DNA from: a bacterium | GTDB taxonomy: Bacteria; Desulfobacterota; Desulfocorpusculales; Desulfocorpusculum | Reading direction: 5' to 3' | Assembly: GCA_037481695.1 (NCBI GenBank) | Contig: JBBFLE010000001.1 | Coordinates: 128,989-192,988, forward strand | DNA length: 64,000 bases | Shown here: positions 20,900 through 38,149 of the stretch, in pieces | Layout: each line of letters starts with the position of its first letter | Numbering within the stretch: the first letter of the stretch is position 1 | Translations under genes and position numbers: made by a program | Notes under the pieces: generated by a model | Told to the model about the DNA's origin: nothing | What the model saw: the letters and a program-made list of their open reading frames with translations, nothing else | Database searches by the model: none

Positions 20900-21220
20900 G
20901 GCTCGCTCTCTTGGCCTGGCTCAACAGCCAGCTCGGCTACTCAAGCAACCGCGAACTGCTGGAGGACATGAAGCAGGCCGACGAGGGCTTTGACGCTTCC
21001 GGGCGCAGTCACATCTACCATCGGCTCCTCTCGCGCGGCAGCAAGGTGCGAATCCCCCGAGGACCTGGCGCGTTACGATGACAACATCCGCGCGCACCTG
21101 GCGGCCATCAACGCCCGCCGTAGCCAGCCCATCACCCTGCTCTACTTCCAGTACCTGGCCTTCCTCTACACCGAAATCGTCCTTGCACCTAGATTTCATC
21201 TTTCACCGCCACCCAGCTGA
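20900..21220 (+). pseudogene. Frameshifted fragment of an unidentified gene (two adjacent frames: ...WLNSQLGYSSNRELLEDMKQADEGFDASGRSHIYHRLL... / ...DDNIRAHLAAINARRSQPITLLYFQYLAFLYTEIVL)
   Basis: Short ORFs without start or RBS lying between HepT and the DUF499 gene; family not recognised. Confidence 0.25.
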
Positions 21221-24200: not shown

Positions 24201-24510
24201 TAACGAGGTGGCGAAGCGTGATCAGGGTATGGGTCTTGCCGCCCCCATAGGTGAGTTCCAACTGGCGGACGGCCTTGTCGTTCTTCCCGGCCAGCCGCAA
24301 AACCACGTCGCGCACGAGCTGGCGCAGGTTGTAGGTCGGGAAGGTAAGGGCGAAAAACTCCTCGGGCTTCTCGTAGATCGGGCGCTTGCCACGCTGCATC
24401 AGGACCTCGTAGAGGTCGGCGGCGAACATATGAAGCGGGAGTTCGCCGGAGCGCAGGTCCTCTCGCAGATTGACCACCTCGTGCCACGGCTTCCAAGGTA
24501 GCTTGGCCAT
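21196..24510 (-). CDS. DUF499 (BrxC/PglY-like) AAA+ ATPase, with a C-terminal poly-Pro linker plus ~80-aa tail
   Basis: MAKLPWKPWHEVVNLREDLRSGELPLHMFAADLYEV... plus TYGGGKTHTLITL P-loop is the canonical DUF499 N-terminus; start taken at the internal ATG 24510 (the ORF extends to 24606). Confidence 0.8.
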   Translation of the reverse strand: MAKLPWKPWHEVVNLREDLRSGELPLHMFAADLYEVLMQRGKRPIYEKPEEFFALTFPTYNLRQLVRDVVLRLAGKNDKAVRQLELTYGGGKTHTLITLRHLVTDPDKLPNLPSVAEFVQAIGQKPPKCRVAGLCFDKLDVEKGMEIASPAGKVRTLKQPWSILAYQIAGDEGLKLLHADGKAEERDSAPAENLLAELLELPARDGLGTLILVDEVLMYAREKVAQDPEWRSRLVNFFQYLTQAVAKVDRCCLVASLLATDPRKSDTLGREIQAELYDIFQRQREEAVEPVVKEDIAEVLRRRFFTTESLKDRESFRQHVVAALKGIQGVDEQTAKQGAEAEERFLKSYPFHPDLTEVLYSKWTQLARFQRTRGVLRTFALALRQAEKWDMSPLIGPAVFLSPPGFEGLSESLREMVAVADTEEWEGKKQAWTGILNSEFAQAIRIQDESVGLKFREIEQAVVATFLHSQPIGQTARTRDLLVLLGSTRPDKIELQKGLARWAQESYWLDDLYAAVAEGQLPATWRLGNRPNLTQMHAIAAKNIPEDVVRARLLDDISKTKALTANASAAGARVHTLPARPKDIEDDGAFHYAVLGPGAASESGKPSPEAKRFIDETTGPDRPRVYRNAVILLVPSRDGLELAMARARDYLGWEQVREEIKKQQKDGNVDPARAETLQINIEKAKARIPEAVKQAYCIVVTVSEKDEVQAFKITVTEDPHFNIIKSDKRSRVQDTAITAEALLPDGPYNLWRSGETSRRVKDLAGAFAQLPHLPKMLRSSAILDTLANGCEGGTFVLRLTRPDGSVRTWWMSRPDENAMNDPALELVLPEAAELGEISPALLAPKHLPGLWSADEITVDAVTRYFSGSTVVQVEREGYQEPMRIPKAGQAVVEKAIGLAVESGALWLLSGPASILGEPIPAGVLNATSKLCPPPAVIAAAEILPENLPAAWKDGVASALSVATALSVKAGKTLPWKTVRDVITAALQARFLVLDQASGPWPCDFPGAQSVKLKVPLDVPPPPPPPPPSNVLMASAELEPSEIQELGDAIPDLLKLKAKANTPFRFFVRIEMGDGKTIPPPEAAKEANKILKKVKEELQLGGGER
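21431..21457. repeat. G-tract GGGGGTGGGGGTGGGGGCGGAGGCGGG (C-strand encodes P9 in the DUF499 protein); potential G-quadruplex / slippage-prone hexamer repeat
   Basis: Read directly from the sequence. Confidence 0.7.
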
Positions 24511-24511
24511 G

Positions 24512-24889
24512 TCAATCCCCCTCTCGATCCGGTTGATATTCCCGAATGCGGTTGCGCTCGACGATCCAGAGCTTGCCTTTGATATCGTTCTGAGCAAGCC
24601 CTTCAATCAACGTACGGCAGCACGCCCAGAGGTCTTGGTCGGTCGGCTTGTGCGGAAGGCGTAAGACGGCGATGCCGCTGTATTCCCAAGGAGGGAAAAG
24701 GAAGGGATTGCTGAAGTCCAGGTCGAGCGTGACTAGACACCTACCCTCTGCCCGACAGGCGGTGATGAGCACGCGATCGCTGGCGGAGCAGAGGTTTTGC
24801 TGCGGAACGGTGGCGACGTCATGGCCCGCGGATCGGAACAGGCGTGCACCCCGTTCACCCAAGTTCTCATCGAGCTTGAGCTTCATCAT
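24512..24889 (-). CDS. DUF5615 (PIN-like, Mut7-C fold) putative toxin
   Basis: MMKLKLDENLGERGARLFRSAGHDVATV...DLDFS pattern typical of DUF5615; start at internal ATG 24889/24886. Confidence 0.65.
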   Translation of the reverse strand: MMKLKLDENLGERGARLFRSAGHDVATVPQQNLCSASDRVLITACRAEGRCLVTLDLDFSNPFLFPPWEYSGIAVLRLPHKPTDQDLWACCRTLIEGLAQNDIKGKLWIVERNRIREYQPDREGD

Positions 24890-25131
24890 TGATTCGCCGC
24901 CGGCAGCTCGACATATCGTTCGCGCGACATTTCGGCCCCATACGCAATGCAAGCTCGGATGTCGTCGTCGTCGATACCAGGGTAATTCTCGCGGATCTGA
25001 TCGAACGTCCAGCCGCTGGCCAGCAAATCCAAGATCAGCGACACCCAGATTCGGTGTCCCCGAATACAGGGCTTGCCGAAGCAAATATTCGGATCGATGG
25101 AGATGCGCTTCAACAGGTCTTCTCGGTTCAT
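24886..25131 (-). CDS. DUF433 putative antitoxin
   Basis: FGKPCIRGHRIWVSLILDLLASGWTFDQIRENYPGIDDDDIRACIAYGAE matches the DUF433 consensus; 4-nt overlaps on both sides. Confidence 0.7.
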   Translation of the reverse strand: MNREDLLKRISIDPNICFGKPCIRGHRIWVSLILDLLASGWTFDQIRENYPGIDDDDIRACIAYGAEMSRERYVELPAANQ

Positions 25132-28100
25132 GGACGATCCTCCTTGTTTGACGGAGTATCGGTGTCGTCGCCAAAAGTCAAGCCCAGCTGGCGATTTTCC
25201 TTCACCGCGCCCCTGGCCTGGACGTGGTTGCTCAGGGATTCGAGCAGGGAGCGCTCTTCGCTTCCGTGGGGCGAAAGCTCGATGAGCGACTGGAGGAGCC
25301 GCTTGAAAAGTTCTTGCCGGCGCAGTCCGTTGCCGTCGAGGTACTCGTCCACCTTGGCAAGATCGCCGGCCTTCCAGAGATGCATCAGGCGGTGCACGCG
25401 GTCGATGAGAGGGATCGGTTTCCCGGCCGGCGCCTCATAGCCAAGTGAACGTCTCTTACGCTGCGCCCACGTCTTGAGCTTCACCTTGCTCCCGGATTCC
25501 TCGAAAGTAGTAGCCGCGTCCTCGCCGCTTTCTTCCTCTTCTATCTCATCATCATCTTCAAGCGACGAGACGTCGCTTCTACTATAGCCGATGATGTCCC
25601 ACGTGTCGGCCAGCTCCTTGTCGGAGAGGCCACACGAGATCGCGTAGAGGATGCACGCGCCCGCCGGGGCTTCCTCGAGGCCGAAGTCGTGACGATGCAG
25701 AAGGTAGTAGGCGGTTGGATCGTCGAGAGTAGACGCGTCGTCTCGACGCGTATCTTCATGTTCGCTTCCACTCAGCACTCGGCCGACCACGAACTCCACG
25801 ACCATCCGCCGCACGTGGGCGAGGAACTCGCTCACCGTCATCAGGCCCGGCTCATTGGCCTTCTTGACCACGGGGTGCTTGCTGTAGGCCTCGAGCGCCG
25901 GACCCGTTGCCGCCCACACGAAGTCCGGCCCACGGATGCCCGCGTCCCAGAATTCGCGGAGCTTGGCGCGGATATTCCGACGCATCTCTTCCAGAACCTG
26001 GTTGTCCCAGCCGGGCTTCGAAAGTAGAAGCGGCGTCCCGCCGCTTTCATCCACGCGACGAGACGTCGCGTCTACGAACGTAGAAGCGGCGTCCTCGCCG
26101 CTTGAGATTACGCGATGAGACGTCGCGTCTACTCGCTTCTTGCAGACCAGCCAAACGGAGGAGGCGAGAGCAGAAGACGCCTTTGCACGCATCCTGGTGT
26201 TCATCTCCGTCTGGATGGGCCAGCTGCCGTCGACGACGAAACCCGATCGAACGAGTGCCGACACGAGGGCTTCCCATGCATCAGGCTGCTTGTTGGCGAA
26301 AACAACAACCATCTTGCCATCCGGTTTCAGTGCGTTCCTGCACGCCTGAAACGCACGCGCCATTCCCTCCTCATAAACGGCCTTCGACTTGGCCTTGTCG
26401 CCTCCGTGACGACTTGCGTCATCGATGAGTTCCCCGTCGTTTCTCTCGTGATTCCACTTGGGCGAAAGGGGGTCTCGAAATGCCCTGTCCAGGTCCAGAG
26501 AAAGACCGTTCAGCGAGCGCTTCAGCCATAGATAGAAAAAATCCATCAGATCCGAGTACGGAATCGCATCGTAGTAGGGCGGGTCCGTCACCACGGCGTC
26601 GTACTGGCCGGAACTGATCTCGAGGGCAGATCGGTTCTCCGCCACGGGCGCCTCGGCATCCGTCGAAGCGAGTAAAGCATGGTCGATACAGAGCGACACC
26701 CAGTTGAGCTGGGCGCAATACGCCGCGCCGACGACATTGATGACTGCCACCTCGGCGAAGTCCCACGTAATCGGCAAAGCGAAGCGAGTAAAGGTATTCC
26801 CGACAAACTCGCCGGAAATAACCCATCGGCAAGTCGTTGAATTGTAGTCTGCAACCTTGTCGTTGAGTATGGCTAGGTAACCTATGACAGCCTCACGCCA
26901 TTCCGACGGATAGCCAAACCGCAACATCTCAGTTGCCGCCTCCCTCGTCCACTTCACGAACGTCCCCAGCGCCAGAAGCTGGCGGGGGGTGAAGAGATCC
27001 CTCCATCGCGTGAAGCCGTAGCCGTCTACGGAAAAAGCTCGGCTTGCTCCGATTCCTCCCCTGGGAGTCGGCTCCACGGGCAACCCGAACGGAATCTGCG
27101 CGAAGAGGTCGGGCAATGCCTTCTCTGCCTGACCCGCTTTCTCTATTTCCTCTCGCTCCGGCAGCCGGTACTCCTTGCCGTCTTGTCCTTCCACGACCAC
27201 GGCGGTCATGACCGAGCCGAGACGCCCGGCCCGACCCTCCAGTCGAATGTCCTCCATCGTCATGATCGTGCCGCAGCAGGGGCACTTGGCGCCAGAGCGC
27301 GACATCGTTCCCGCCCCGAGGCGCTTGTCGTGCTCGCGGCGCTGCGCTGCGTTCCCGCCTTTTACGGGAACGTTTGTCTCGATTCCAAAGACCACAGTAG
27401 ACGCGACGTCCCGTCGCGTTGGGGCGGCACTGTCTTCCGGCTTGCCCTTGGGATTATTCCGAATGTATTGCCTGACTCGTTCCATTTGAGCAGGGCTTCT
27501 AATAATGTGGTCAAAGGATTCTTTCTGCCATACGGTTCCGCTGCGCCCCAGTTTCCTGTTGATCTCGTGCGCCGTGTAGGACTTCCATGAATGAAGGATC
27601 TCGGACAGTTCATGCCCAGCCAGGGGGGTCACCAAAGCATGGACATGGTTGGGCATCACCACATGTTCATCGAGAAGGTAGCGTTCTCCATCAAAGTGCC
27701 GCAGAGCACTTTCGACAAGTGCCTTGATTTCTGGTTTGGCAAGGATGCATTCGCCGTAACCGGCGTCTAGCCATTCCTGAAAACGTTGGGGAAAAAGTTG
27801 ATAATACTCGCGACGTGTCTTTTCGTCGTGAGGTTCAGGATGTTTCTCCTGCCACGCCTTGCGTTCCTCTTCCCATTGCAGCAACTTCTCTTGAGGCATG
27901 GAATCTGCTAGACGGAAGGTCACGAAATAGGTTGCACCGTCCTGGCGCCAATGGGGAAGGTTGCCGGAAAGGTTGCCAATGGGGGCTTCAGGATCGAAGT
28001 AATGCAGAAGCGCCGTCTCGACGCTTCTCGCACGCGGCGAGGACGCCGCGTCTACTATTACTTGCATCGTGAGGAGCACGCGCTTTTTTTCCTTCTTGCA

Positions 28101-29138
28101 CAGCCAGCGGGTCTTGAGGAGCGGGATCGTCGCGCGGCAGTTCTTGCAGGTCACCGTGCGCGCCCAGAGGTAGGCGACCGTCGGCTTCGCCACCCATCGG
28201 GGATTGCGTTTGTCTGCCAGGTACTCCGCGCTGAACTGGGCATTCAGCCGGTCAATGTCCGGCTTCCCATCTTCCTTGAGGGGAACCAGGCGCGTGGGCT
28301 GCTTCTCGTAAGGTAGACGCGACGTCCCGTCGCATAGAAAGCGGCGGGACGCCACTTCTACCGGCTCGAACTCGGCGTAGGTCGGGTAGAACCTGGCAAG
28401 TTCCCGTCGGGCGCGGTCGAGAACCCACTGGCCCCACGCTCGGACGTGCCAGGCGAGGTCTGCTTCCAAAGGAGACGCGACGTCCCGTTGCATGGCCTGT
28501 TTAAAAAGCGACAAGACGTCGCTTCTACACCGCGGGTGCGCCTTGTAAAAGGCCTTCATGAACTCCTCGTTCTCGAGGATGAAGTCCGGCAGAGGATGGG
28601 TCTTCCCGGCCAGCTTCTGCGGATATTCGAGCGTGCATTTGAGGATGAACCAGGCGACCGGGTTGATGTCCACGGCCGTCACCTCGCACCCGAGGCGCAT
28701 GGCCTCCAGCGGGATCGCACCGCCGCCCGCGAAGGGGTCCAGCACTTTGGGTGGGCGCCCTCCGTAGGCCTTGCGGATCTCCTGCCGGAACCACTCCAGC
28801 AGCTCCTTGTTCTCGGTCTCCCGGCCCCAGTGCAGAATGCCTCCCTCGGTGGCTTCCTTCTCACGCTCGACGACCCGCCCGCCGGGCATCTTCTTGCGCT
28901 CGATCTTTTTCACTACTTTGCCACCGATTTTCTCGCAGAGCTTCTGGCGTGCTTCGGGCGTTCCGGGATCAGGCAGGAGCGTGGCGATGAGGGCGGCCCG
29001 GCACGCGGCCAGCGGCCGCCGCGCTGGCCAGATGTGGAGCGTCGAGATGTGCCCATGCCGCACGTTCTTCTCGTGGACGGAGTCCAGAGAAGCCTGCTTC
29101 AGCGGGAAGGCATGCTCGATCAGGCGAGATTTGTCCAT
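25128..29138 (-). CDS. DUF1156-family N6-adenine DNA methyltransferase (1336 aa) carrying an in-frame Y1/RAYT transposase domain and multiple in-frame REP-derived segments
   Basis: Canonical DUF1156 N-terminus (EHAFPLKQASL...HIWPARRPLAACRAAL); FxGxG motif (VLDPFAGGGAIP); Zn-ribbon KCPCCGT; catalytic DPPYYD motif; AGGA RBS 6 nt before ATG 29138. Confidence 0.85.
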   Translation of the reverse strand: MDKSRLIEHAFPLKQASLDSVHEKNVRHGHISTLHIWPARRPLAACRAALIATLLPDPGTPEARQKLCEKIGGKVVKKIERKKMPGGRVVEREKEATEGGILHWGRETENKELLEWFRQEIRKAYGGRPPKVLDPFAGGGAIPLEAMRLGCEVTAVDINPVAWFILKCTLEYPQKLAGKTHPLPDFILENEEFMKAFYKAHPRCRSDVLSLFKQAMQRDVASPLEADLAWHVRAWGQWVLDRARRELARFYPTYAEFEPVEVASRRFLCDGTSRLPYEKQPTRLVPLKEDGKPDIDRLNAQFSAEYLADKRNPRWVAKPTVAYLWARTVTCKNCRATIPLLKTRWLCKKEKKRVLLTMQVIVDAASSPRARSVETALLHYFDPEAPIGNLSGNLPHWRQDGATYFVTFRLADSMPQEKLLQWEEERKAWQEKHPEPHDEKTRREYYQLFPQRFQEWLDAGYGECILAKPEIKALVESALRHFDGERYLLDEHVVMPNHVHALVTPLAGHELSEILHSWKSYTAHEINRKLGRSGTVWQKESFDHIIRSPAQMERVRQYIRNNPKGKPEDSAAPTRRDVASTVVFGIETNVPVKGGNAAQRREHDKRLGAGTMSRSGAKCPCCGTIMTMEDIRLEGRAGRLGSVMTAVVVEGQDGKEYRLPEREEIEKAGQAEKALPDLFAQIPFGLPVEPTPRGGIGASRAFSVDGYGFTRWRDLFTPRQLLALGTFVKWTREAATEMLRFGYPSEWREAVIGYLAILNDKVADYNSTTCRWVISGEFVGNTFTRFALPITWDFAEVAVINVVGAAYCAQLNWVSLCIDHALLASTDAEAPVAENRSALEISSGQYDAVVTDPPYYDAIPYSDLMDFFYLWLKRSLNGLSLDLDRAFRDPLSPKWNHERNDGELIDDASRHGGDKAKSKAVYEEGMARAFQACRNALKPDGKMVVVFANKQPDAWEALVSALVRSGFVVDGSWPIQTEMNTRMRAKASSALASSVWLVCKKRVDATSHRVISSGEDAASTFVDATSRRVDESGGTPLLLSKPGWDNQVLEEMRRNIRAKLREFWDAGIRGPDFVWAATGPALEAYSKHPVVKKANEPGLMTVSEFLAHVRRMVVEFVVGRVLSGSEHEDTRRDDASTLDDPTAYYLLHRHDFGLEEAPAGACILYAISCGLSDKELADTWDIIGYSRSDVSSLEDDDEIEEEESGEDAATTFEESGSKVKLKTWAQRKRRSLGYEAPAGKPIPLIDRVHRLMHLWKAGDLAKVDEYLDGNGLRRQELFKRLLQSLIELSPHGSEERSLLESLSNHVQARGAVKENRQLGLTFGDDTDTPSNKEDRP
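25509..25583. repeat. REP doublet (REPIN-like) with expanded acidic spacer, in frame in the methyltransferase (encodes SRSDVSSLEDDDEIEEEESGEDAATTF)
   Basis: GTAGTAGCCGCGtccTCGCCGCT ... AGCGACGagaCGTCGCTTCTAC. Confidence 0.6.
25729..25751. repeat. Solo REP hairpin GTAG-ACGCGTCG-tct-CGACGCGT (encodes TRRDDAST)
   Basis: Perfect 8-bp stem preceded by GTAG. Confidence 0.65.
26024..26132. repeat. Two tandem REP doublets (REPINs, 52-53 bp each, period 56 bp): GTAGAAGCGGCG-tcc-CGCCGCTT/spacer/ACGCGA(C/T)G-aga-CGTCGCGTCTAC; in frame, encodes VDATSHRVISSGEDAASTFVDATSRRVDESGG
   Basis: Read directly; the two REPs in each doublet are inverted (GTAG ... CTAC). Confidence 0.75.
27397..27419. repeat. REP hairpin GTAG-ACGCGACG-tcc-CGTCGCGT immediately 3' of the RAYT domain (encodes TRRDVAST)
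   Basis: Read directly; orientation inverted relative to the REP on the other side of the RAYT. Confidence 0.7.
27425..27965 (-). mobile_element. IS200-like Y1 transposase / REP-associated tyrosine transposase (RAYT) domain, embedded in frame in the methyltransferase
   Basis: LPHWRQDGATYFVTFRL..., HuH motif MPNHVHALV, ...GTVWQKESFDHIIRS..., RQYIRNNP (catalytic Tyr region); no own start codon; flanked by inverted REPs at 28005-28055 and 27397-27419. Confidence 0.75.
28005..28055. repeat. Degenerate REP plus REP (CGCGGCG-agga-CGCCGCG-TCTAC) immediately 5' of the RAYT domain (encodes IVDAASSPRARSVETALL)
   Basis: Read directly. Confidence 0.6.
28313..28362. repeat. REP doublet GTAGACGCGACG-tcc-CGTCGCA/tagaa/AGCGGCG-gga-CGCCACTTCTAC in the N-terminal half of the methyltransferase
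   Basis: Read directly. Confidence 0.6.
28471..28528. repeat. Degenerate REP doublet (GGAGACGCGACG-tcc-CGTTGCA ... AGCGAC-aag-ACGTCGCTTCTAC) in the N-terminal half of the methyltransferase
   Basis: Read directly. Confidence 0.5.
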
Positions 29139-29162
29139 GCATCATCCTCGCGTGCCTACTTG

Positions 29163-29663
29163 TTAGGGTCTGCCGTCCACTTCAGACATCCTGATGGCAT
29201 CGTGTCCTATAGGGAACACATATGCTGCCGCGTGCCAATCTCTATTGGGATCGCCGCCCATCAGCAGAAGTACCGGTTCGGGACACCTCATCGCATTATT
29301 GGTGGCAAATGACTTCATTTGTTCATGGTCTATTTCGCTAGGGATAGGGGCGGCCAAAGGATGGTAATGCCACTCGCCAAGGTAATACTGTTTCCGACGC
29401 CAGAGACGGTTCAAGAACGCCTGGAGACCTCGCACGCCGCGGTTGAAAAATACTCTGCCTCGTCTGGAATCTGCCGGAGGTCCAGACACATCGGTTACGA
29501 TAGCCCAATCGTGCTTGTCAGTATAGTAACCAACGAGAATTCCCCCTGTCTCCATATGCCTTGATGCCTTACAGAATGCGATTATCTTGTCCATTGTCAT
29601 TCCTTGCACAGACAGTCCAAACCGCGCATCAGGCGTTCTAAACTCAAGGGTTCTCATGTTCAT
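29163..29663 (-). CDS. cap3: CBASS Cap3-like JAB/JAMM isopeptidase
   Basis: E...HYHPLAAPIPSEID = HxH-x7-S-x2-D JAMM motif; 166 aa; directly downstream of the E1/E2 gene. Confidence 0.75.
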   Translation of the reverse strand: MNMRTLEFRTPDARFGLSVQGMTMDKIIAFCKASRHMETGGILVGYYTDKHDWAIVTDVSGPPADSRRGRVFFNRGVRGLQAFLNRLWRRKQYYLGEWHYHPLAAPIPSEIDHEQMKSFATNNAMRCPEPVLLLMGGDPNRDWHAAAYVFPIGHDAIRMSEVDGRP

Positions 29664-29665
29664 TA

Positions 29666-31555
29666 CTATTGGACCAATTTGATTCCCGGTGGGAACTCAT
29701 CCTTCTGCTCCTGTTCAAACACGCACAATCGAGGAGAACGTGGAGGATTAGTCATCCATGAATCAATGCATTTCACGGCGATGGAACTCAACAACCAGAT
29801 ATCATCCGAGCGAGCGGGAAAGACGGGGTGCCAGCATCCGAGCCCTTCGGGGGGCAACTCGAATCCCTTGTGCTCTTTCAACTCTTTGTCGAGCCACGGG
29901 GTCAGCATGGCCGAGAAATCATGATGGGGGAACCTCTCGCCACATGCCCCGAATAAAAATAACCGTCGGGCTTGAAGACCTGTCGAGATACTCACAAACA
30001 GTTTGTTGCCCTCCCAAGGAAAGGTGCTCAATCGGAAAGCAGCACGGTCATCACCAGTACAGTCGATGACGATAGTGCACTCCGCCATTTTCCGTTGCTC
30101 AACCTCAGTGGTGTTGTGCACGTATCGTCTGACCCCCTCGGCGGTAACGTGAGGAGAGATGCTGTTCAATCGGGCCGCCAACGACTCTGCTTTTGGTGTC
30201 TGTATCTCTTGGATGGAGAGCGTGTGACGACACAAGTTGCCCACTTCAAGGATGTCTCCGTCTACCACAACTATTCTCTGACAGCCTTCGCGAACGAGTA
30301 TCTCAGCCACCGAGGATCCTATAGCCCCAGCGCCAACTATCAGAACCTTGGCACCCGTTAGTGAAGATGATGCTCGGCCTCTTGTCCGTATCTGTTGCTC
30401 CGACCAGTTCCTTGAGATGATCCAGTCAATGCTGCTGCTATCCGAAAGAACGGTACGGGCGTCGTTCATTGCGAAGTTTCCCTCCTTGGGGCGAAAGCCT
30501 TTCACCTTGCCATGTGTAAGCACAGGCAGCTGGAGTGCCTGCCAGTGGTACATCGCGGGTTCGCCCCCAATGGTAGTTGGTATGGGGAAGCCGACAAGTA
30601 GAATGTGCCGTTTGCCGTCACGAAAGTCTCGAGCAAGGTCGAAGAACAGAGGATTGAAGTCAACGCCCTGTTCCTTCATTGCTGCTCGCAGTTCGCCGAA
30701 GGTTGCGGGGGCTTGCCAAGGGTGGATCACCGGTATACGAGGTAGGCGGATCCACATCGCGGAGAGTTTGCGCGCAGTCCCATGCCTTAACAAGGCTCCG
30801 TACTCCACTTCCCGAATGGTTTTTCCTCGTGCATTTGAGAAGGTGGTGACGGCATACCACGCGTTGACGCCATCAGGTTGAACCACGGTGGCAACCCCAC
30901 ATACCTCGACCGTCTCTTCCTGCCAGAACCGAAAGGAGTCCTCGTCTTCGATGAAGCCTAGTGTAGTGTGTGATCGTCGCGGAAAGTCTGGCAATTCGAA
31001 CGGTTCGCCCACCTCGGCTACTCGACCTGCTGCCGCAGCCTCTAACCACTCCTTAGCTCGCATTACGTGCCACCGCAACCGCTCTTCAGGCGAGGTGGGT
31101 TCGATATCGTAGGCCCGCCGCCCCGCGTAGCGCAGCGATGTCCGGACGCATATCTTCCCCTCTCGCCACGGGACATCAGGATTCCCCTCAGCGTTGTGTG
31201 ACTGATGGGGAAATGTGTGTTTGATCCCCCCGTCTTTGGCAGGATACAGTTCAATATCGCCCCATGGATAGTCGTCATCTGCAACGATGAACCACACCGA
31301 CTTGGCAGGAATGAGACCGGCAGGCTTTACCGTCAAACGACATCGCAGCGCCCATTTCTTGAATAGCTCATTCCACACCCAGTCTTCCAACAGTTCGCAG
31401 AAAGGGAGTCCATCCAGCGCTCGTCGTGCTCGCAACAAACTATCTGGTGGTTGGAATTTCATATTGTCAAGCAAAGCGTCCGCCTCCGATGATGGAGACA
31501 TTCTTCCTTGGCGTATACCCACCCGGCTTGTCGGGCGACTCACCGTTACCGTCAT
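29666..31555 (-). CDS. cap2: CBASS Cap2-like E2/E1 fusion (ubiquitin-conjugation-like)
   Basis: C-terminal ThiF/E1 Rossmann KVLIVGAGAIGSSVAEIL...VVVDGDILEVGNLCRH; N-terminal E2-like half; start ambiguous (ATG 31555, 31501 or 31462; the ORF runs to TTG 31591), overlapping the CD-NTase 3' end. Confidence 0.7.
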   Translation of the reverse strand: MTVTVSRPTSRVGIRQGRMSPSSEADALLDNMKFQPPDSLLRARRALDGLPFCELLEDWVWNELFKKWALRCRLTVKPAGLIPAKSVWFIVADDDYPWGDIELYPAKDGGIKHTFPHQSHNAEGNPDVPWREGKICVRTSLRYAGRRAYDIEPTSPEERLRWHVMRAKEWLEAAAAGRVAEVGEPFELPDFPRRSHTTLGFIEDEDSFRFWQEETVEVCGVATVVQPDGVNAWYAVTTFSNARGKTIREVEYGALLRHGTARKLSAMWIRLPRIPVIHPWQAPATFGELRAAMKEQGVDFNPLFFDLARDFRDGKRHILLVGFPIPTTIGGEPAMYHWQALQLPVLTHGKVKGFRPKEGNFAMNDARTVLSDSSSIDWIISRNWSEQQIRTRGRASSSLTGAKVLIVGAGAIGSSVAEILVREGCQRIVVVDGDILEVGNLCRHTLSIQEIQTPKAESLAARLNSISPHVTAEGVRRYVHNTTEVEQRKMAECTIVIDCTGDDRAAFRLSTFPWEGNKLFVSISTGLQARRLFLFGACGERFPHHDFSAMLTPWLDKELKEHKGFELPPEGLGCWHPVFPARSDDIWLLSSIAVKCIDSWMTNPPRSPRLCVFEQEQKDEFPPGIKLVQ

Positions 31556-32603
31556 CCTTCTTTGCCGGTGGGTCCGGGAACCGGTCACCAAAGAGCTGTC
31601 GCCACAGAATCACGCTCTCGTGCAGGTCTTCTTCGTTGTATGCTCGGCGGGCTAACTCGGCTGCCTCCGTGATGTGCTCGTGGAAGGCGACGAAGTCATC
31701 GGGAGACACTCGCCCTAATACATTGTGCTCTGGAACACCATGGTCAGGAACCCTTGGTGTTCGTTTCTGCTCAACATCTGTGCGGTATACGTCGCGAATG
31801 CCTTCGAGGGCTGAGACCACACCAGCGGCGACGGATTGAATACCATCCGCGCAGTTTATGCAGCAAAGGTGCTCTAGGGGATAGCTCTTGGGGTACTTTG
31901 GCTCCCGGCGTTGCGTGGTTCGCCACCATTTCAGGCACTTCACAACGTCGAGGTAGTAGCCATTGCATGCTGCATTCTTTCTTTGCGTTGCTTCAATCTG
32001 AGCCAATGGATGTGTCTTGTGCCATTCCTGTGCTTCTCGGTCAGGAATCCAGAGGGGCTCGTTTCGCCATTGTTCATCCCCCGCCTTCTCCAATATCGCG
32101 CCTAGCGATTTGCCAGACCGCCACGACAGGCTGAGCCTCCAGTCACGAGCTTCTTCCAGTGTTTGGTCGGTTGAGACGCTCGCAGACTTGACGAGCTGTT
32201 TCAGCGCCTCGCTAGGTGCGGATGTCGGCACGAGGTCCAGTTGGACATAAGATAGTTCAATGCCCCACGAGCGGCCTTGCGGCTTGTACTTGCCCTTGTA
32301 GTGCTTCTCCAAGAAGGGCCTGAAGCGTTCCAAGGCCTCACGAGGTGTGATCTTGTTTCGGTCGAGATTCGTTACGATGATAATGTCGACATCGGATTTC
32401 CTCCGGTCTTCGAACGGTCTGATCGCCGTGGAGCGCCTATAGCTGCCCTGAAGGAAGGTCGCCACAACGATGTCCTTCAAATCTTCGTCCTTGAGGAGCC
32501 GGTCCCTGAGTGTGCTGTGCCCGTTCTTACAATCCTGGACTTGGCTCTCCGTGATCCTGATGTTCCTCAAGAAATCGATGAAGTACGATGGTACATTACT
32601 CAT
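31467..32603 (-). CDS. CD-NTase (cGAS/DncV-like nucleotidyltransferase) of a type II CBASS
   Basis: GSYRRSTAIRPFEDRRKSDVDIIIV (GS...[DE]h[DE] NTase active-site motif); 378 aa; C-terminus ...IIGGGRFA; ATGA start/stop overlap with the effector gene. Confidence 0.75.
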   Translation of the reverse strand: MSNVPSYFIDFLRNIRITESQVQDCKNGHSTLRDRLLKDEDLKDIVVATFLQGSYRRSTAIRPFEDRRKSDVDIIIVTNLDRNKITPREALERFRPFLEKHYKGKYKPQGRSWGIELSYVQLDLVPTSAPSEALKQLVKSASVSTDQTLEEARDWRLSLSWRSGKSLGAILEKAGDEQWRNEPLWIPDREAQEWHKTHPLAQIEATQRKNAACNGYYLDVVKCLKWWRTTQRREPKYPKSYPLEHLCCINCADGIQSVAAGVVSALEGIRDVYRTDVEQKRTPRVPDHGVPEHNVLGRVSPDDFVAFHEHITEAAELARRAYNEEDLHESVILWRQLFGDRFPDPPAKKDDGNGESPDKPGGYTPRKNVSIIGGGRFA

Positions 32604-34171
32604 TCCATGTCCCCCTTATGTTTTCCACGCGTTCCAAAACTCGAGCCGCAACTAATAGGGACGCTGATAGACTGATAATATGCAGCACCGCCTGCATCGA
32701 GATCATGCTCGTACAGCACCAGCTTGCCGAGAACGTGCGCCAACCGCCCAAGCAGGAACATTATGCCGTTGGGGGCCGCGAAGAACACGTGCAATACGCC
32801 GCCTTGTCCGCCGCACAACTCCCTGACGGTGGCAACGAGACACTCGGCCAAGAGATGGGCATGAGTTCCATCCTTAACCGATGAGGGGCCTGCAGACGGG
32901 AGGAGGAAGTGAACGATGCTCCCGGCTGTCTTGACGTTCAGTCTCACGTACTTCAAGACGTCCTTCTCGATGTTATGTGTGGCGCTGATTGCAAGGACCG
33001 TATCCGTGGTGTTCGCCGGTTCCAGTTTGATAACGCTCACATCCCATTTCGGGTAGTGTTTCTCGATTTCGGGCGAAACGTGTGCTTTTCTCCATATATG
33101 CCGCCCTGCAAGGCTGTCCTGCACGGGCACGATGTCCACGCCAGATTTTGGGTTCAGCGCCCATCCCGCAATGAATGCGATGCTACCGTGCGTCTGGAGG
33201 CGGATATGGAATGAGCGCGAAGGCTTCACATTCACATCGAGAAAGCGAATCACCGCAGGGGCTATGATCTCATTCCACGTATTGGGTACTCTTGGAAACC
33301 GCCCGTTGAAATGGCGAAGCAGGCAGAGTGTCGCGTCGGTTTCGTCTTCAAGGTTCTCGGCATACCGCCAGAAGCTGCGGATGCCGATCCTTGTGGCATC
33401 AGGCTCTTCAATCGCCCGCCCCGCCCAGAGAGCACATTCGCGGGAGAGTTTTTCAAGGGAATCTCTTGTAAGAACTCTGTCTCCTCTTTCAATTAGTTTT
33501 CGCCCAAGATCATCGTACGGGTTTATGGGGTTGCCCGGCTGGACCGGAACGAGCCCTACCAAACGGAGGCGAAGATTTAGGTCTTCGCCCAATTTTTCCA
33601 ATGTCGGCCCCTGATGCACGCGAACAAGGCGCAGCAAACGCTGCAGTTCCTCGTCTGACCGGAGGCCTAAATGTCTCTTCCACGCCTCACGCACTTTCCC
33701 CATCCTCGACTTAGGGCCGCCTCGAGACAACACATCCCATCGCAGGCTTCCGTCGGTCAGGCTGTGAAATGCGCCCATCTCGTTGTCGGGATGGACCTGC
33801 CACGGTGAAAAGATGTTGAACCGACAGTTACAGCCTTTTGATGCGCATTTGCGTTGCGCGTTCAAAAGTCGTTGCAGAATGGATACTGAGTTGGCGTTCA
33901 CAAACGAGGGATCCATCATGTTTTGCCATGTGAAGGCCCCGTTGCTTTTAACGTGAAACTTGACTTGGTAGAAATCTGCGTGAATGGACTCACCCGCATC
34001 GGAATAGCCGCTATAACGGACCACCACGTCGTCCAGAGATTTTGCCTCATCGCTCTCAATCTCCACGCTTACAACTTTCGTCTTGTCCTCGAGCAGACGG
34101 CATGCCTGCAACCAGAAGAAACGTATCTGATAGTCGTCGCCCTGAAGCCGTGCTGCAACTGCTCTAGCCAT
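32600..34171 (-). CDS. cap4: Cap4-like CBASS effector: N-terminal DUF4297/REase-fold nuclease plus C-terminal SAVED domain
   Basis: Start at MARAVAARLQGDDYQIRFFW (GGAGG upstream; 2-nt gap after the helicase stop); D...QVK nuclease motif; C-terminus ...LHVFFAAPNGIMFLLGRL typical of SAVED. Confidence 0.6.
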   Translation of the reverse strand: MARAVAARLQGDDYQIRFFWLQACRLLEDKTKVVSVEIESDEAKSLDDVVVRYSGYSDAGESIHADFYQVKFHVKSNGAFTWQNMMDPSFVNANSVSILQRLLNAQRKCASKGCNCRFNIFSPWQVHPDNEMGAFHSLTDGSLRWDVLSRGGPKSRMGKVREAWKRHLGLRSDEELQRLLRLVRVHQGPTLEKLGEDLNLRLRLVGLVPVQPGNPINPYDDLGRKLIERGDRVLTRDSLEKLSRECALWAGRAIEEPDATRIGIRSFWRYAENLEDETDATLCLLRHFNGRFPRVPNTWNEIIAPAVIRFLDVNVKPSRSFHIRLQTHGSIAFIAGWALNPKSGVDIVPVQDSLAGRHIWRKAHVSPEIEKHYPKWDVSVIKLEPANTTDTVLAISATHNIEKDVLKYVRLNVKTAGSIVHFLLPSAGPSSVKDGTHAHLLAECLVATVRELCGGQGGVLHVFFAAPNGIMFLLGRLAHVLGKLVLYEHDLDAGGAAYYQSISVPISCGSSFGTRGKHKGDME

Positions 34172-34173
34172 AT

Positions 34174-37100
34174 TCAGCTCTCCTCCGCCTCCATGATCTG
34201 CCTTGCGCTGATCAGAACGCTCCCCTTGGCCCGGGCGAGCAGGCTCCCGAAGGGGTCCTGGACGCGCACGAGGCGTGGGTTCGAGGTGGCGCAGTCGTAG
34301 ACTACGTAGAGCCAGTAGTCCTGCCGCATGTTGCAGGCCCTGGCCCATTCATTGGCGGACACCTCGATGTCGCCGGTGCCGGCCCGGCCCTTGACCTCGA
34401 TGGCGCGTTTCTCGAAAGTAGAAGGGGCGTCCTCGCCGCTTGAAGTTACGCGACGAGACGTCGCGTCTACAGAGCGGATGGAAAGCAGGTCAAAGCCAGG
34501 GTTCTCCGGCAACCCTGCCGCACGCGCCAGCTCCGGAGTATGCACGTCCAGAACCTTCGCTCCTGCGGCTTCCTCGAAGGCCCGGGCGATTCTCATGGCG
34601 GCCAATTCCACGTTGATGTCGTGCTCCTTGATGTCTCTCGGATCAGAGGATGGCACAACCAGGGCGTGCGCGACGAAGGTAATTGGGCCAGGCGCGACCA
34701 GCTCGGGTTCTCGACGCAGCACCGCCAGGGCGTTCGATCTGCGTTGGGCAAGCTGTCTCTGCTGGCGCTTTACTTCCTCCAGCGCATCCATGGCTTTTCG
34801 GTTTCCCTTGCGAGCCTTTTCCGCGTGCCTGGTGCGGGCGGCCGCAAGTTCGGCCTCCCGGAAGTCGAAGCCGCGGCGAAGGAAGCTCTCACGCTCCGGC
34901 AGCGTGTCCAACAACCTCTTTCTGCGCTCCAATGCCATTTGGCGCGCCACTTGTTCCAGGAGAAACGCTTTCGCCTGTTCCTTCATCTTGCCGGCCTCAA
35001 CCGCCAATCGCTGCGCAGCAGGCGGGAGGCCATGACCACCTTTCAAGAGGAGGAGGTGTTCGACCGGGCAGAGCGCCACGTCGGCGTCATCGTACTGCCT
35101 CAGCCCCACCAGCCGGCATTCGAGCGTCTCTTCCTCGGTGAGTTCGGTCAGTTCCGCGTCGGGTTTTCGGATCACCGACAAGAGCGCCATGTGGAAGAGA
35201 TACGGCCTATCGGTCATGGGGTCGACGAAGACGGCGCCCCTTTGGCCTGCGTCCGCGAGGCGTTCGGAAATCAGGGCGCGGAATCGCTCGAAGACGGGCT
35301 CGCCTGGATGAAGCCAGATCACCTCTTTCGGATCTGTAGGTCTGGACACTGTCAGTTTCTCGCGGGACTTCTCCGGATAGAACTCCAGCGCGGACAAGAG
35401 CGGGTCCATCGCCCCCGTTCGCTTGGGGCGCAGGGAGAACACGCCTCCAGGATCCCCCTCGATTTCCAGACCCAAGAGCGGCGCCGCCTGCTCGATGTAC
35501 TGGCGGACGTAGCCCGGCAACAACCGGAAATACACCTCCCGCTCGAGGTTCTCTCGAAGCCGCGGGAGTTGCCTGGCGACATCTCCGCCCGAGCCGTAAA
35601 GGGACCGTTCGCGGGCGGCCAGGGCCTCCAATTGCTCCTTGGTCAGGCGGCCATCCAGTTCACGCGCCACCTCGTCGGGGTCTTCGATGACCGCAAGCTC
35701 CATGTACTTCCTGATGGAAACCCCCTGGAATATCCGCCCGATGCAATCGAAGACCTTGTCAGAGTTTAGCTCCTTCCGAATTTTCTCCATCTTGTCGAGA
35801 AGCGTCTTGAGCACCCGGCCTTCCCGGGTGGACGGCGCCACAAGGTTCAGGATGATGACCGGATCGTGCTTTTGCAGGTAGCGATGGATGCGCCCCATCC
35901 GCTGTTCGAGGCGCGCCGGGTTCCACGGCACGTCGTAGTTGATCATGATCCAGCAGAACTGGAGGTTGATCCCCTCGCCCGCCGCGTCCGTGCATACCAG
36001 AAACCGTGCGCCGCCCTCATGAGACGCCTTGCGGAAGCGCTCCACTTCTTCTTCACGCTGGGTAAAGTGCATGCCGCCGTGGATCTGGGCCACCTGCCCC
36101 GTGTAGCCCATCCCGATGAGGCGCTTGACCAAGAAGTCCAGCGTGTCCCGGTGCTCCGTGAACACGATGAACTTCTCGTCACCGAATTTAGGGTCGGTCA
36201 GGATTTCCCTAAGCTTCTCGAACTTGGACTCCTGGCCTAGGTCGTAGACCTGCCTCGCCAACGCGAGCAACTTTTGGACCTGCTCCCGTTCGGCCAACAG
36301 ATCCGCCAGCGAAGCGGCGACCACCCCCTGGAGCAACTTGTCCTCGGCAAGCTCGTTTTCCTCGCGACCTTCCGCCGGGCTTTCATCATCAGCGGTCTTG
36401 TTATCGAGGACGTCGTCTGTCTCATGGATGCGTTGCTGCAGGGTCACGAGCTGCTCGACGTTCAGTTCGCCGTCCTGCACGGCCTCAATGAGTCCTTCGA
36501 GCTTTTCAATCCGGCGCTCGAAGGATCGCAGGAGCGCCCAAGTTGAGCTGGCCAGCCTCCGCTGGAACACGCCCATGGCCAGCCGCGCTGCCTCCCGGTT
36601 CAGGAGCTTCGCCTTATTGTAGACGAACCGAAGGTAGTCTGTGGTCTCGTCGTATAGGGTCTGTTCGCTGATCGGGCCCTGGGATAGTTCATAGCCGAGC
36701 GTGTCTGAGATCCGCTTCGGGAAAAGAGGCCTGCCGTCGAGGTAGACCATCTCCTCCTTGGTGCGGCGAATGAAATGGCTCGCGCGGTGTTCCGCCGGGA
36801 ACTCGTTGAACGCTTCCGGAGTGGACAGCACGTCGGGTTCAAGGAGCCGCCACAGCGCGTAGTAGGGGTAGTCCTTGCCCATGTGGGGCGTGGCGGTGAG
36901 CAAGAGGAGATGATGGGCGCACCAGCCCAGACTCCATTGATCATCGAGATCGCGCACTCCCGCCAGGGCCTCCGCCAAGCAGTAGCGGTCTGTCTTGCGC
37001 ACCCGCATGTCGTTGCCGCGATCTGCGGACAGTTTGTGTGCCTCGTCAAAGACGACGAGATCGTAGGGGATGACATCGGGTTCCTTGAGGCGGGCAAAGA

Positions 37101-37791
37101 CCCTGGGGCTGGAGAGCGTGTCCAAGCTGACGATGATCCGGTCGCTGTCATCGCCTTTGAACGGGTTGTCGTTACGGGCGTCTGATCCGCTCACGATTCG
37201 GAAGACCAGGTTGAAAAGCGTCGCCAGTTCATGCCGCCAGTTTCCGACTAGCCCCGCCGGGGTGACGATCAGGACTCGACGCAGGAGCCGTCGGGAGAGC
37301 ATCTCGCGGAGGTAGAGCCCGGTCATGATCGTCTTCCCCGCGCCGGCATCGTCGGCCAAGAGGAAGCGGAGCCGGGCTTGCTTGAGCATGTGCTCGTAGA
37401 CGGCGATGCGCTGGTGAGGCAGCGGATCGATGCAGGAGATCTCGGTGGCAAAGGCGGGATTCATGAGGTGGCCGAAGGAAAGCCGTTCACCCTCGGCCAG
37501 CACCTTCACAATCTCGGGCGGGGCGGTGAAGTCCAGTATCGGTGGTGCGCCCCCGTAGGAGTGTTGCTCCGGCTCGGCGACCTTGCTTCGAGTGTCCAGT
37601 TCCGCCTCCAGCTGTCGTAGGCGGGCCCAGCAGATTTTCGATGGCTTGACCTTGCCGTTCTCCCAACGATTTACGGTAGGAAATGATACGCCGACCGCCT
37701 CAGCGAGCGCGACCTGGGTCAGTCCTAAGCGTGCCCGCAAGGCTTTTATCCTGCGAGGGTAATCGTCTCCTGGCGTTGAAGTCATAGCCAT
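34174..37791 (-). CDS. XRE-family HTH fused to SNF2/COG0553 helicase with C-terminal DUF3883-like domain
   Basis: LGLTQVALAEAVGVSFPTVNRWENG HTH; DDAGAGKT (motif I), VVFDEAHKL (II), LLLTATP (III), QRMGRIHRYLQ (VI); C-terminal EVKGRAGTGDIEVSANEW...YWLYVV; start at MAMTST. Confidence 0.8.
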   Translation of the reverse strand: MAMTSTPGDDYPRRIKALRARLGLTQVALAEAVGVSFPTVNRWENGKVKPSKICWARLRQLEAELDTRSKVAEPEQHSYGGAPPILDFTAPPEIVKVLAEGERLSFGHLMNPAFATEISCIDPLPHQRIAVYEHMLKQARLRFLLADDAGAGKTIMTGLYLREMLSRRLLRRVLIVTPAGLVGNWRHELATLFNLVFRIVSGSDARNDNPFKGDDSDRIIVSLDTLSSPRVFARLKEPDVIPYDLVVFDEAHKLSADRGNDMRVRKTDRYCLAEALAGVRDLDDQWSLGWCAHHLLLLTATPHMGKDYPYYALWRLLEPDVLSTPEAFNEFPAEHRASHFIRRTKEEMVYLDGRPLFPKRISDTLGYELSQGPISEQTLYDETTDYLRFVYNKAKLLNREAARLAMGVFQRRLASSTWALLRSFERRIEKLEGLIEAVQDGELNVEQLVTLQQRIHETDDVLDNKTADDESPAEGREENELAEDKLLQGVVAASLADLLAEREQVQKLLALARQVYDLGQESKFEKLREILTDPKFGDEKFIVFTEHRDTLDFLVKRLIGMGYTGQVAQIHGGMHFTQREEEVERFRKASHEGGARFLVCTDAAGEGINLQFCWIMINYDVPWNPARLEQRMGRIHRYLQKHDPVIILNLVAPSTREGRVLKTLLDKMEKIRKELNSDKVFDCIGRIFQGVSIRKYMELAVIEDPDEVARELDGRLTKEQLEALAARERSLYGSGGDVARQLPRLRENLEREVYFRLLPGYVRQYIEQAAPLLGLEIEGDPGGVFSLRPKRTGAMDPLLSALEFYPEKSREKLTVSRPTDPKEVIWLHPGEPVFERFRALISERLADAGQRGAVFVDPMTDRPYLFHMALLSVIRKPDAELTELTEEETLECRLVGLRQYDDADVALCPVEHLLLLKGGHGLPPAAQRLAVEAGKMKEQAKAFLLEQVARQMALERRKRLLDTLPERESFLRRGFDFREAELAAARTRHAEKARKGNRKAMDALEEVKRQQRQLAQRRSNALAVLRREPELVAPGPITFVAHALVVPSSDPRDIKEHDINVELAAMRIARAFEEAAGAKVLDVHTPELARAAGLPENPGFDLLSIRSVDATSRRVTSSGEDAPSTFEKRAIEVKGRAGTGDIEVSANEWARACNMRQDYWLYVVYDCATSNPRLVRVQDPFGSLLARAKGSVLISARQIMEAEES
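34418..34470. repeat. REP doublet (REPIN) in frame in the helicase, between the helicase core and the DUF3883-like domain (encodes SVDATSRRVTSSGEDAPSTF)
   Basis: GTAGAAGGGGCG-tcct-CGCCGCTT/gaagtt/ACGCGACG-aga-CGTCGCGTCTAC; same family as the copies in the methyltransferase. Confidence 0.75.
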
Positions 37792-37823
37792 GGTATTCTC
37801 ATCGCCGAGTGACAATATAAAAA

Positions 37824-37852
37824 ATTATATCATATGCAATAGTGAGTGTCAA
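37824..37852 (-). promoter_or_regulatory. Consensus sigma70 promoter TTGACA-N17-TATAAT driving the helicase/CBASS/MTase/ATPase gene string
   Basis: Minus-strand reading TTGACActcactattgcatatgaTATAAT, about 30 nt upstream of the helicase start; AT-rich with ATATAA/TTATAT inverted repeat. Confidence 0.55.
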
Positions 37853-38149
37853 ACTATCACACGATGGGAGGCATTTGCGCTGTTAAGGTTTTGGGAGGCC
37901 TGGTCAATGCGCGGAGAGGTTTGCACGGCGGGTTGGGGCCGGCAGATGTCACAGCTGGAGGCCCAAAAGCTTTTGCTACAGGCTCACTTTGGCGCTCTGA
38001 GCATTTTCACTCCTGGTTTCAAAAACACCACCCCCCGCTGCTTCTCGATCTGCCTCCCACCTTGCAACAACTACGCTGCCTTGCGTGACTTGGGGCTCCA
38101 AACCAAAGAACGCATTTGCTCCTTACGATTGCTCTCGACCACCCCTACC

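Follow-up and report, generated by a model that had tools for sequence, protein, structure and literature searches.

A selfish-looking REPIN in frame in the nuclease hairpin of the defence protein HmaA, with a REP-associated transposase in frame in the neighbouring HmaB

The 64-kb stretch of bacterial DNA analyzed here (the window: positions 128,989 to 192,988 of contig JBBFLE010000001.1, assembly GCA_037481695.1) contains an Hma defence locus in which the helicase-nuclease gene hmaA carries a small mobile element within its coding sequence. The element, at 34415-34473 on the minus strand, was delimited by repeat matches and by homologue and codon alignment; it is a REPIN, i.e. an inverted pair of repetitive extragenic palindromic (REP) units, and it is translated in frame within the predicted C-terminal nuclease domain. 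We consider it most probably (at about 0.78) a tolerated selfish passenger in a tolerant loop and not a designed linker. A REP-associated tyrosine transposase (RAYT) is encoded in frame in hmaB, in the same locus, among further units of the same family.

The insertion in hmaA

The host gene is hmaA of the Hma system (named by Payne et al., PMC8565338), located at 34174-37785 on the minus strand and encoding a protein of 1203 residues with helix-turn-helix (HTH), SNF2 helicase and NOV_C nuclease regions (Pfam HTH_3, SNF2-related, Helicase_C and NOV_C; PADLOC HmaA, E = 1.2e-152). Residue numbers refer to the translation of the whole open reading frame (ORF), which is open from 37815 and thus has 1213 codons, and exceed by 10 those of the 1203-residue protein called in public assemblies (P0001, 100% identical to the window HmaA). 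On the plus strand, positions 34418-34470 read GTAGAAGGGGCGTCCTCGCCGCTT, GAAGTT and ACGCGACGAGACGTCGCGTCTAC, an inverted doublet of 23 + 6 + 24 nucleotides (nt), or 53 bases. On the coding strand the element is TCT + GTAGACGCGACGTCTCGTCGCGT + AACTTC + AAGCGGCGAGGACGCCCCTTCTAC + TTT, translated as S-VDATSRRVTSSGEDAPST-F (S1115-F1134, or S1105-F1124 of P0001), and it stands in the context ...LLSIR-SVDATSRRVTSSGEDAPSTF-EKRAIEVKG... within the uninterrupted 1213-codon ORF (34174-37815).

In each arm the GTAG tag precedes an imperfect palindrome with an 8-bp stem and a 3-4-nt loop, as suits a GTAG-type REP (stem ~6-9 bp). REP unit 1 (34448-34470, minus strand) consists of GTAG and an 8-bp stem, ACGCGACG/CGTCGCGT, closed by the loop TCT; it is read in phase GTA-GAC and shows 0 mismatches to a copy at 26053-26075. 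REP unit 2 (34418-34441, plus strand; GTAGAAGGGGCGTCCTCGCCGCTT) is inverted relative to unit 1 and consists of GTAG and AAGGGGCG/TCCT/CGCCGCTT. Compared with other copies of the family, the two arms have 0 and 1 mismatches. The arrangement of two inverted units around a short spacer recurs in other genomes described below, with the same 23 + 6 + 24 nt in L127 and L128 and with 23 + 10 + 23 nt in L123. As single-stranded DNA the two hairpins have a folding energy of -17.7 kcal/mol (z = -2.6 versus shuffles). In 154 copies in other genomes an A-rich extension at -3 to -1, 5' of GTAG, belongs to the unit, and for this reason AAA at 34415-34417 (TTT after CTAC on the coding strand) is probably also part of the hmaA element.

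When up to 3 mismatches are allowed, the arms find 4 matches as a 26-mer and 2 as a 28-mer in the window and none in 100 shuffles, and chance similarity was therefore rejected. The sequence-only reading had recognized an in-frame REPIN of the family found in a second gene of the operon, and this is borne out: the doublet lies exactly at 34418-34470, the ORF is open, and 58 nt align with 26075-26132 at 91% identity. When the 16 units were made into an nhmmer profile, it retrieved these and no others from the 64 kb (14 from the ORF 25128-29138, hmaB, and 2 from hmaA), the next match having E = 9.9; all 16 are intragenic and in frame. The further claim that two genes carry frame-preserving copies and the four genes between them, of a cyclic-oligonucleotide-based anti-phage signalling system (CBASS), carry none is thus also correct. 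Across hmaA and hmaB the units occur in both orientations and several codon phases and encode different peptides; forward units are read in 2 phases and reverse units in 2, and only the stop-containing phases are excluded for certain. The similarity among the units is at the level of DNA and not of peptide, and a repeated peptide motif was rejected on account of the mixed orientations and phases.

Comparison with homologues defines the segment as an insertion. Of the 8,000 candidates scored in each search, 6,689 for HmaA and 7,931 for HmaB are homologues at E <= 1e-20. The best 119 full-length HmaA homologues (72-85% identical, from metagenome-assembled genomes (MAGs) of many phyla) all have R-PGN-E-KRAIEVKG where the window has R-SVDATSRRVTSSGEDAPSTF-E-KRAIEVKG. 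In a codon alignment with L001, which carries the closest insertion-free homologue (85% identical), CGG CCG GCC AAC GAG is opposite CGC TCT-[53 nt]-TTTC GAG in the window, so that 60 nt stand in place of 9 nt (net +51 nt, 17 codons) and 20 residues replace Pro-Gly-Asn. A wider set of 204 HmaA relatives, including fragments from a search with the C-terminal 180 residues, gives the same picture: the stretch from GFDLLS to KRAIEVKG is 6 residues long in 180 of the 204, and the SVDATSRRVTSSGEDAPSTF sequence occurs in none except L127 and L128, which carry the same REP. An equivalent native linker in homologues had been named in advance as the observation that would overturn the insertion, and the search for one leaves the insertion standing; a native interdomain linker was rejected because homologues show only the 3-residue turn. 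An intein was likewise rejected, since the insert has only 20 residues (SVDATSRRVTSSGEDAPSTF) and no splicing blocks (N-terminal Cys/Ser, C-terminal His-Asn + Cys/Ser/Thr; at least ~130 residues). A 13.8-kb stretch of a Logan assembly contig, possibly from the same sample, is 100% identical to window positions 24174-38003, and related lineages carry the same element; an assembly artefact was rejected on these grounds.

The insert does not lie at a domain boundary. The sequence-only reading had placed it exactly at the junction of the helicase core and a DUF3883-like C-terminal domain, splitting one from the other, but insert residues 1115-1134 fall inside the NOV_C domain (PF13020, formerly DUF3883; 34267-34605, minus strand; residues 1071-1183; Pfam E = 8.5e-14), and what the element separates is strand beta-2, with the catalytic Asp, from strand beta-3, with Glu-x-Lys. 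The upstream Asp codon (34489-34491, minus strand; GFD-LLS) corresponds to the invariant D76 of the alignment used for modelling (A1) and to Halomonas D1084, and the downstream Glu-Val-Lys codons (34390-34398, minus strand; IEVKG) to the invariant E107 and K109 and to Halomonas E1104 and K1106. D76, E107, K109 and E123 are invariant in its 104 sequences, a PD-(D/E)xK layout with a further acidic residue in the next helix, and the HmaA C-terminal domain is accordingly a predicted PD-(D/E)xK nuclease. In Halomonas meridiana HmaA this domain is a PD-(D/E)xK nickase, and defence depends on its D1084 (beta-2), E1104 and K1106 (beta-3) and E1121 (Liu et al., 2024, PMC11232893). The 180 C-terminal HmaA residues were modelled with AlphaFold2 from the same alignment; the model has a mean predicted local distance difference test score (pLDDT) of 88.7 and keeps strands 77-82 (FDLLSI) and 101-110 (FEKRAIEVKG) at high confidence. 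The insert (model residues 82-101) has pLDDT values of 50-70 and lies in a stretch whose block-mean pLDDT falls to 68-75; the peptide is hydrophilic, modelled at low confidence and without motif. Foldseek matches of the model in the PDB are weak (best E = 0.03), and all are PD-(D/E)xK nucleases (RecU/PrfA, SPARDA, PvuII and MspJI). In the model the element would extend the turn of the beta-2/beta-3 hairpin at the end farthest from the catalytic residues.

Tolerance of the turn, the RAYT in hmaB and copies elsewhere

The turn that holds the REPIN is filled in other lineages as well. Among the best 120 full-length HmaA proteins it is the position most often occupied by an insertion resembling a palindromic element (10 proteins, at least 5 different elements); with fragments included, ~14 of the 204 relatives (~7%) carry insertions there and 93% have the bare 3-residue turn. 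The inserts comprise PACASAHADR and PACADTAGR, SSSAKAMEDK and variants, FSAITIPPGK, LPAAPGAAQAG, one of 38 residues and one of 16. The DNA of three of them has lengths of 30, 30 and 114 nt, each divisible by three, and each folds into a hairpin, with energies down to -61 kcal/mol. The distance from Asp to Glu is 14 residues in the window subfamily without insert, 31 with it, and 20 in Halomonas HmaA. Unrelated in-frame hairpin elements of other lineages in the same turn favour loop tolerance, and such a pattern is expected if insertions arrive widely and survive only in a tolerant loop. Of the suggestion that the distribution of copies is non-random, reflecting tolerance of a linker or loop, or function, the non-randomness and the loop tolerance hold (at least 5 unrelated elements share the turn), but nothing was found that supports function. 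A second palindrome family of ~30-33 nt (ends CCTGCC...GGCAGG) was also observed, encoding LPAxxxAQAG in one frame and PACAxxAGR in another, and it stands in frame at ~9 HmaA positions (P0011, P0013, P0016, P0026, P0033, P0040, P0060, P0071, P0113 and others; L125, 7542-7571).

The hmaB gene (25128-29138, minus strand; PADLOC HmaB, 6e-110) encodes a DUF1156 adenine methylase of 1336 residues and carries 14 REP units in six clusters (25503-25586, 25725-25752, 26020-26134, 28000-28058, 28310-28362 and 28467-28529). The RAYT is in frame within it at 27397-28055 on the minus strand (residues ~360-580; Pfam Y1_Tnp, E = 1.4e-7; NCBIfam REP_Tyr_transpos, E = 3e-20 and 72.5 bits, just below the cut-off of 80) and has the motifs LPHW, MPNHVHA (HUH) and SWKSYT; it is preceded by a REP doublet and followed by a single unit, all in the methylase frame. 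The arrangement is not peculiar to the window. In ~21 of the best 120 HmaB homologues (54-71% identical; Syntrophaceae, Lentisphaeria and other MAGs of several phyla) PF01797 is found in the same polypeptide, and some of these fusions are named 'adenine-specific DNA methylase/REP element-mobilizing transposase RayT' by the Joint Genome Institute (JGI). Their RAYTs occupy nearly the same place in the methylase and comprise three types, each with a GTAG REP family of its own on either side. The RAYTs of type a share 67-88% identity with that of the window, compared with 66-74% for the methylase backbones, the two being weakly correlated (r = 0.36). The RAYT domain is thus as conserved as its host protein and under purifying selection, with a history partly uncoupled from that of the host. 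In another HmaB (L125, 9229-13701, 1490 residues; also P0157) another domain of selfish appearance, a GIY-YIG nuclease, stands in frame in the variable region that in the window carries the REP doublet at 28313-28361.

The hmaA junction is used in a second lineage. P0122 (L127, GCA_016873035.1) and its counterpart in L128 (a JGI metagenome) are HmaA 3' ends on contigs whose first bases already belong to a tandem array of three or more REPINs with a unit of 23 + 6 + 24 + 1 = 54 nt (18 codons), and the array ends at the same junction as in the window, CTAC-TTTG-GAG AAA CGC. Both public contigs start in the array (L127, 1-170; L128, 1-110), so that assemblies break there and the copy number is a lower bound. 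The 3' coding part of L127 is conserved, and the gene downstream encodes a Schlafen/AlbA_2 protein, not CBASS. Between window and L127 the flanks are 83% identical and fourfold-degenerate sites agree at 17 of 33, whereas the REP arms agree at 45 of 47 (P = 3e-11); the 6-nt spacers differ completely. Either the arms are younger than the host genes, one junction having been hit repeatedly, or they have been kept uniform; recognition by a transposase would keep them uniform and peptide function would not. In P0117 (L123), whose hmaB also has this type of RAYT, a doublet of the same family lies at another HmaA site (residue 799), where it is preceded by TCT and replaces 4 native codons (net +48 nt).

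A metagenome scan for a REP end followed by EKRAIEVKG returned one contig, of the same lineage as L127; among 1.84 billion representative proteins the 40-residue REP-encoded peptide, a very short query, had 3 matches, of which 2 are WD-repeat noise and 1 is P0122; and a plasmid collection gave no REPIN match. A degenerate 23-mer, scanned against one genome per species, was found at at least 120 loci (~1 chance match expected by our estimate) in Planctomycetota, Verrucomicrobiota, Kiritimatiellae, Lentisphaerae, deltaproteobacterial/Myxococcota, Acidobacteria and other MAGs, with many copies in some genomes. At least 154 exact copies occur in MAGs of the Planctomycetes-Verrucomicrobia-Chlamydiae (PVC) group, in deltaproteobacterial and in other MAGs. 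They are underrepresented in long ORFs: 10% are located 150 or more codons into an open frame, versus 42% of random positions. The 16 copies in the 64 kb of the window are all intragenic. Extragenic doublets of the family range from 53 to 81 nt and are not limited to multiples of three. The credible intragenic copies elsewhere are nearly all in defence genes, a lead from a small sample whose collection was not designed for the question. In-frame copies lie directly ahead of the NPPY motif of a type IIG Eco57I-like enzyme (L023, ~4983), within an N6_N4 DNA methylase (L094, ~3739), within another HmaB (L082, ~7012) and within a protein without assignment whose C-terminus is PD-(D/E)xK-like (L095, ~614). 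In 'Proteobacteria bacterium SKS3.bin107' (L089, JAJZRU010000001.1; ~5134 and ~7265) a single ORF combines the EcoEI_R_C domain of a type I HsdR with a same-type RAYT that itself contains REP units; the N-terminal part of this HsdR ORF runs beyond the fetched stretch, and a REPIN stands in frame in the middle part of the HsdS next to it.

The remainder of the window locus follows the organization of Hma systems. The gene hmaC (21196-24606; PADLOC HmaC, 3.4e-72) encodes a DUF499 ATPase on the same strand as hmaA and hmaB; the genes are co-directional and nearly abutting, and NCBIfam concurs with PADLOC (anti-phage DUF1156 and DUF499 families). A DUF433/PIN-like pair (24512-25174) lies between hmaB and hmaC, and a complete type II CBASS (29163-34171), comprising a SAVED-endonuclease effector, a CD-NTase, a Cap2-like E1/E2 protein and a Cap3-like JAB protein, between hmaA and hmaB. 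The hma locus is described as a hotspot of embedded defence genes (PMC11232893). In relatives other cargo was seen at the cassette positions (AAA_14/DUF4143, Cap15 CBASS, Schlafen/AlbA_2). The G+C content of the CBASS cassette is 55%, compared with 60-64% for the Hma genes. The cassette probably has a separate, later history, and the lack of copies in its genes is more simply explained by its nature as cargo, with a different G+C content and different counterparts in relatives, and by the likely source of the copies being the RAYT in hmaB.

Competing explanations

In the favoured explanation the REPIN is a non-autonomous mobile element of the kind moved on single-stranded DNA by RAYT (HUH/Y1) transposases, its probable source being the RAYT 6.4 kb away in hmaB amid 14 units of its family. 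It would have become fixed inside hmaA, exchanging the Pro-Gly-Asn turn of the nuclease beta-2/beta-3 hairpin for 20 residues, and its persistence would reflect an inserted length that preserves the frame, a reading phase without stop codon, and a turn far enough from the catalytic Asp and Glu-x-Lys for a floppy hydrophilic loop to protrude and leave the fold unbroken. Unit density declines with distance from the RAYT (units at 0.3-0.5, 1.3-1.9 and 6.4 kb; the other 56 kb have none), which fits local seeding. Evidence for mobilization by the RAYT is indirect, namely arms that remain nearly identical across diverged hosts and distinct sites; the hmaA copy was presumably moved by the RAYT of the window. 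HmaA is presumably still active and the insert neutral. Preservation of the frame in all seven insertion clusters of hmaA and hmaB is read as survivorship in genes under purifying selection (for hmaA, dN/dS, the ratio of nonsynonymous to synonymous substitution rates, is 0.11 compared with its L001 homologue, with dS 0.73) and not as a special reading frame.

Several observations sit uneasily with a tolerated passenger. The insert lies between catalytic residues, and activity of HmaA with the insert is only predicted. It is not a clean addition of 53 nt: 9 native bases are gone, and TCT (34471-34473) and TTTC (34414-34417) flank the doublet. Each of three insertions of the family (window hmaA; L123, 12392-12460; window 26016-26140) lacks 3-5 native codons, an unexplained loss that the peel-and-paste mechanism of IS200/IS605-type enzymes does not predict. 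Use of exactly the same junction in two diverged lineages is likewise unexplained, and the agreement of the arms at 45 of 47 positions, against 17 of 33 fourfold sites, indicates that the element is not simply old neutral DNA. Among the homologues there is no close strain with an empty site, the nearest insertion-free gene being 15% diverged at the protein level, and recent polymorphism is not demonstrated. The two hmaA insertions share CG(N)-TCT before GTAG; as a target-site motif this fails, since the third insertion lacks it, and the loss of native codons in all three prevented a reconstruction of the insertion chemistry.

The position between the catalytic Asp and Glu-x-Lys, the loss of native codons at the junction, and the youth suggested by arms with 0 and 1 mismatches to other copies would also suit an inactivating lesion, in which the nuclease is crippled, the frame is open only because the event is recent, and hmaA is becoming a pseudogene. 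This is unlikely, as all helicase and nuclease motifs of HmaA are intact in an open 3.6-kb ORF, the model retains both strands, the site is also occupied in a diverged lineage whose 3' coding part is conserved, and seven separate clusters in hmaA and hmaB would rarely all be in frame by chance alone. It is a degree less probable again that the loop is adaptive, the REPIN peptide or its copy number modulating the nuclease by gating the active site, by escape from a phage inhibitor or as a RAYT-driven switch of length in 54-nt steps. That the same junction holds a single doublet in the window and three or more tandem 54-nt doublets in L127 and L128, that conservation of the REP arms far exceeds that of neutral flanking sites, and that the hairpin bears catalytic residues essential for defence in Halomonas HmaA all speak for such a role; yet unrelated elements with unrelated peptides fill the turn elsewhere, 93% of relatives have it bare, the peptide has low model confidence and no motif, and the arms are conserved as DNA, as recognition by a transposase requires, while the spacer is not.

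A function of the nucleic acid itself, with the hairpins acting in mRNA or DNA on transcript stability, ribosome pausing or expression of the CBASS genes ~245 nt downstream, is very improbable. The REPIN folds better than shuffled sequences (z = -2.3 to -2.6) and REPs elsewhere are reported as RNA elements (PMC3733652), but the stability is modest, the hmaB copies have no consistent position relative to gene ends, and scans for promoters, terminators and Rfam families gave nothing at the element or close to it. Nothing, therefore, supports a function of the insert, and the tolerated passenger is preferred. A bolder reading is offered tentatively, as somewhat short of an even chance: that an undescribed RAYT-REPIN lifestyle exists, in which the RAYT persists as an in-frame domain under purifying selection in mobile defence genes (~21 HmaB homologues with three RAYT/REP types; type I hsdR) and crosses phyla with them, and REPINs settle preferentially in frame in HmaA, HmaB, HsdS, a type IIG enzyme and a DNA methylase. 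The further step, in which the hairpin of the nuclease would gain and lose 54-nt units as a switch, has less support.

Relation to known systems

If the bolder reading is true, a defence methylase found across phyla gives RAYT-REPIN systems a horizontal vehicle, and the long-standing question of REPINs as parasites or partners of their hosts becomes directly testable in a compact, clonable operon; RAYTs are currently presented as single-copy, vertically inherited and domesticated. RAYTs in frame in defence genes were not found in the searchable literature on REPINs and RAYTs, on Hma, on BREX-related (bacteriophage exclusion) systems or on RAYTs with defence. For HmaA itself, the active-site hairpin can absorb at least 17 extra residues, the turn is a natural permissive site for engineering or tagging, and such segments should be annotated with caution, as mobile DNA and not as linkers.

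The closest precedent for the hmaA element is the work of Di Nocera, De Gregorio and Rocco (2013, PMC3733652), in which intragenic inverted dimers of GTAG REPs encode 20-30 residues in frame in hosts that are often helicases and repair or DNA-handling enzymes, PVC bacteria are rich in intragenic REPs (abundant in a verrucomicrobium), and neutral insertion in flexible loops is proposed. The GTAG tag, the short palindrome and the in-frame inverted dimers are alike. The hmaA REP, however, is of another family (the tables of that paper contain none of VDATS, DATSRR and GEDA, and its Opitutus terrae peptides bear no relation to those found here), its host is a mobile defence gene, and its cognate RAYT is in frame in a neighbouring gene. 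In-frame GTAG REP dimers are thus already known; of the two features, the RAYT carried in frame by defence genes offers the lead of greater novelty. Rickettsia palindromic elements (PMC10969869) are also palindromic mobile elements in frame in unrelated genes and judged compatible with the fold; they differ in their length of ~150 bp, conserved peptide, lack of a known dedicated transposase and occurrence in reduced intracellular genomes. The H. meridiana HmaA (PMC11232893) shares family and architecture with the window protein but has no REP insert. Inteins and homing-endonuclease insertions resemble the element in their selfish persistence in conserved genes without destruction of the product; the hmaA insert, unlike an intein, has no splicing domain or junction residues, is far too short at 20 residues, and stays in the protein.

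With REPIN-RAYT systems (Bertels and Rainey, 2011, PMC3116915) the window shares the inverted REP pair in a larger hairpin, the RAYT flanked by REPs and the near-identical copies. Classical REPINs, as that work and later papers present them, are extragenic and genome-wide, and their RAYT is described as single-copy, vertically inherited and free-standing; compared with systems so described, the copies in the 64 kb of the window are all intragenic, in two defence genes, and the RAYT is a domain of HmaB.

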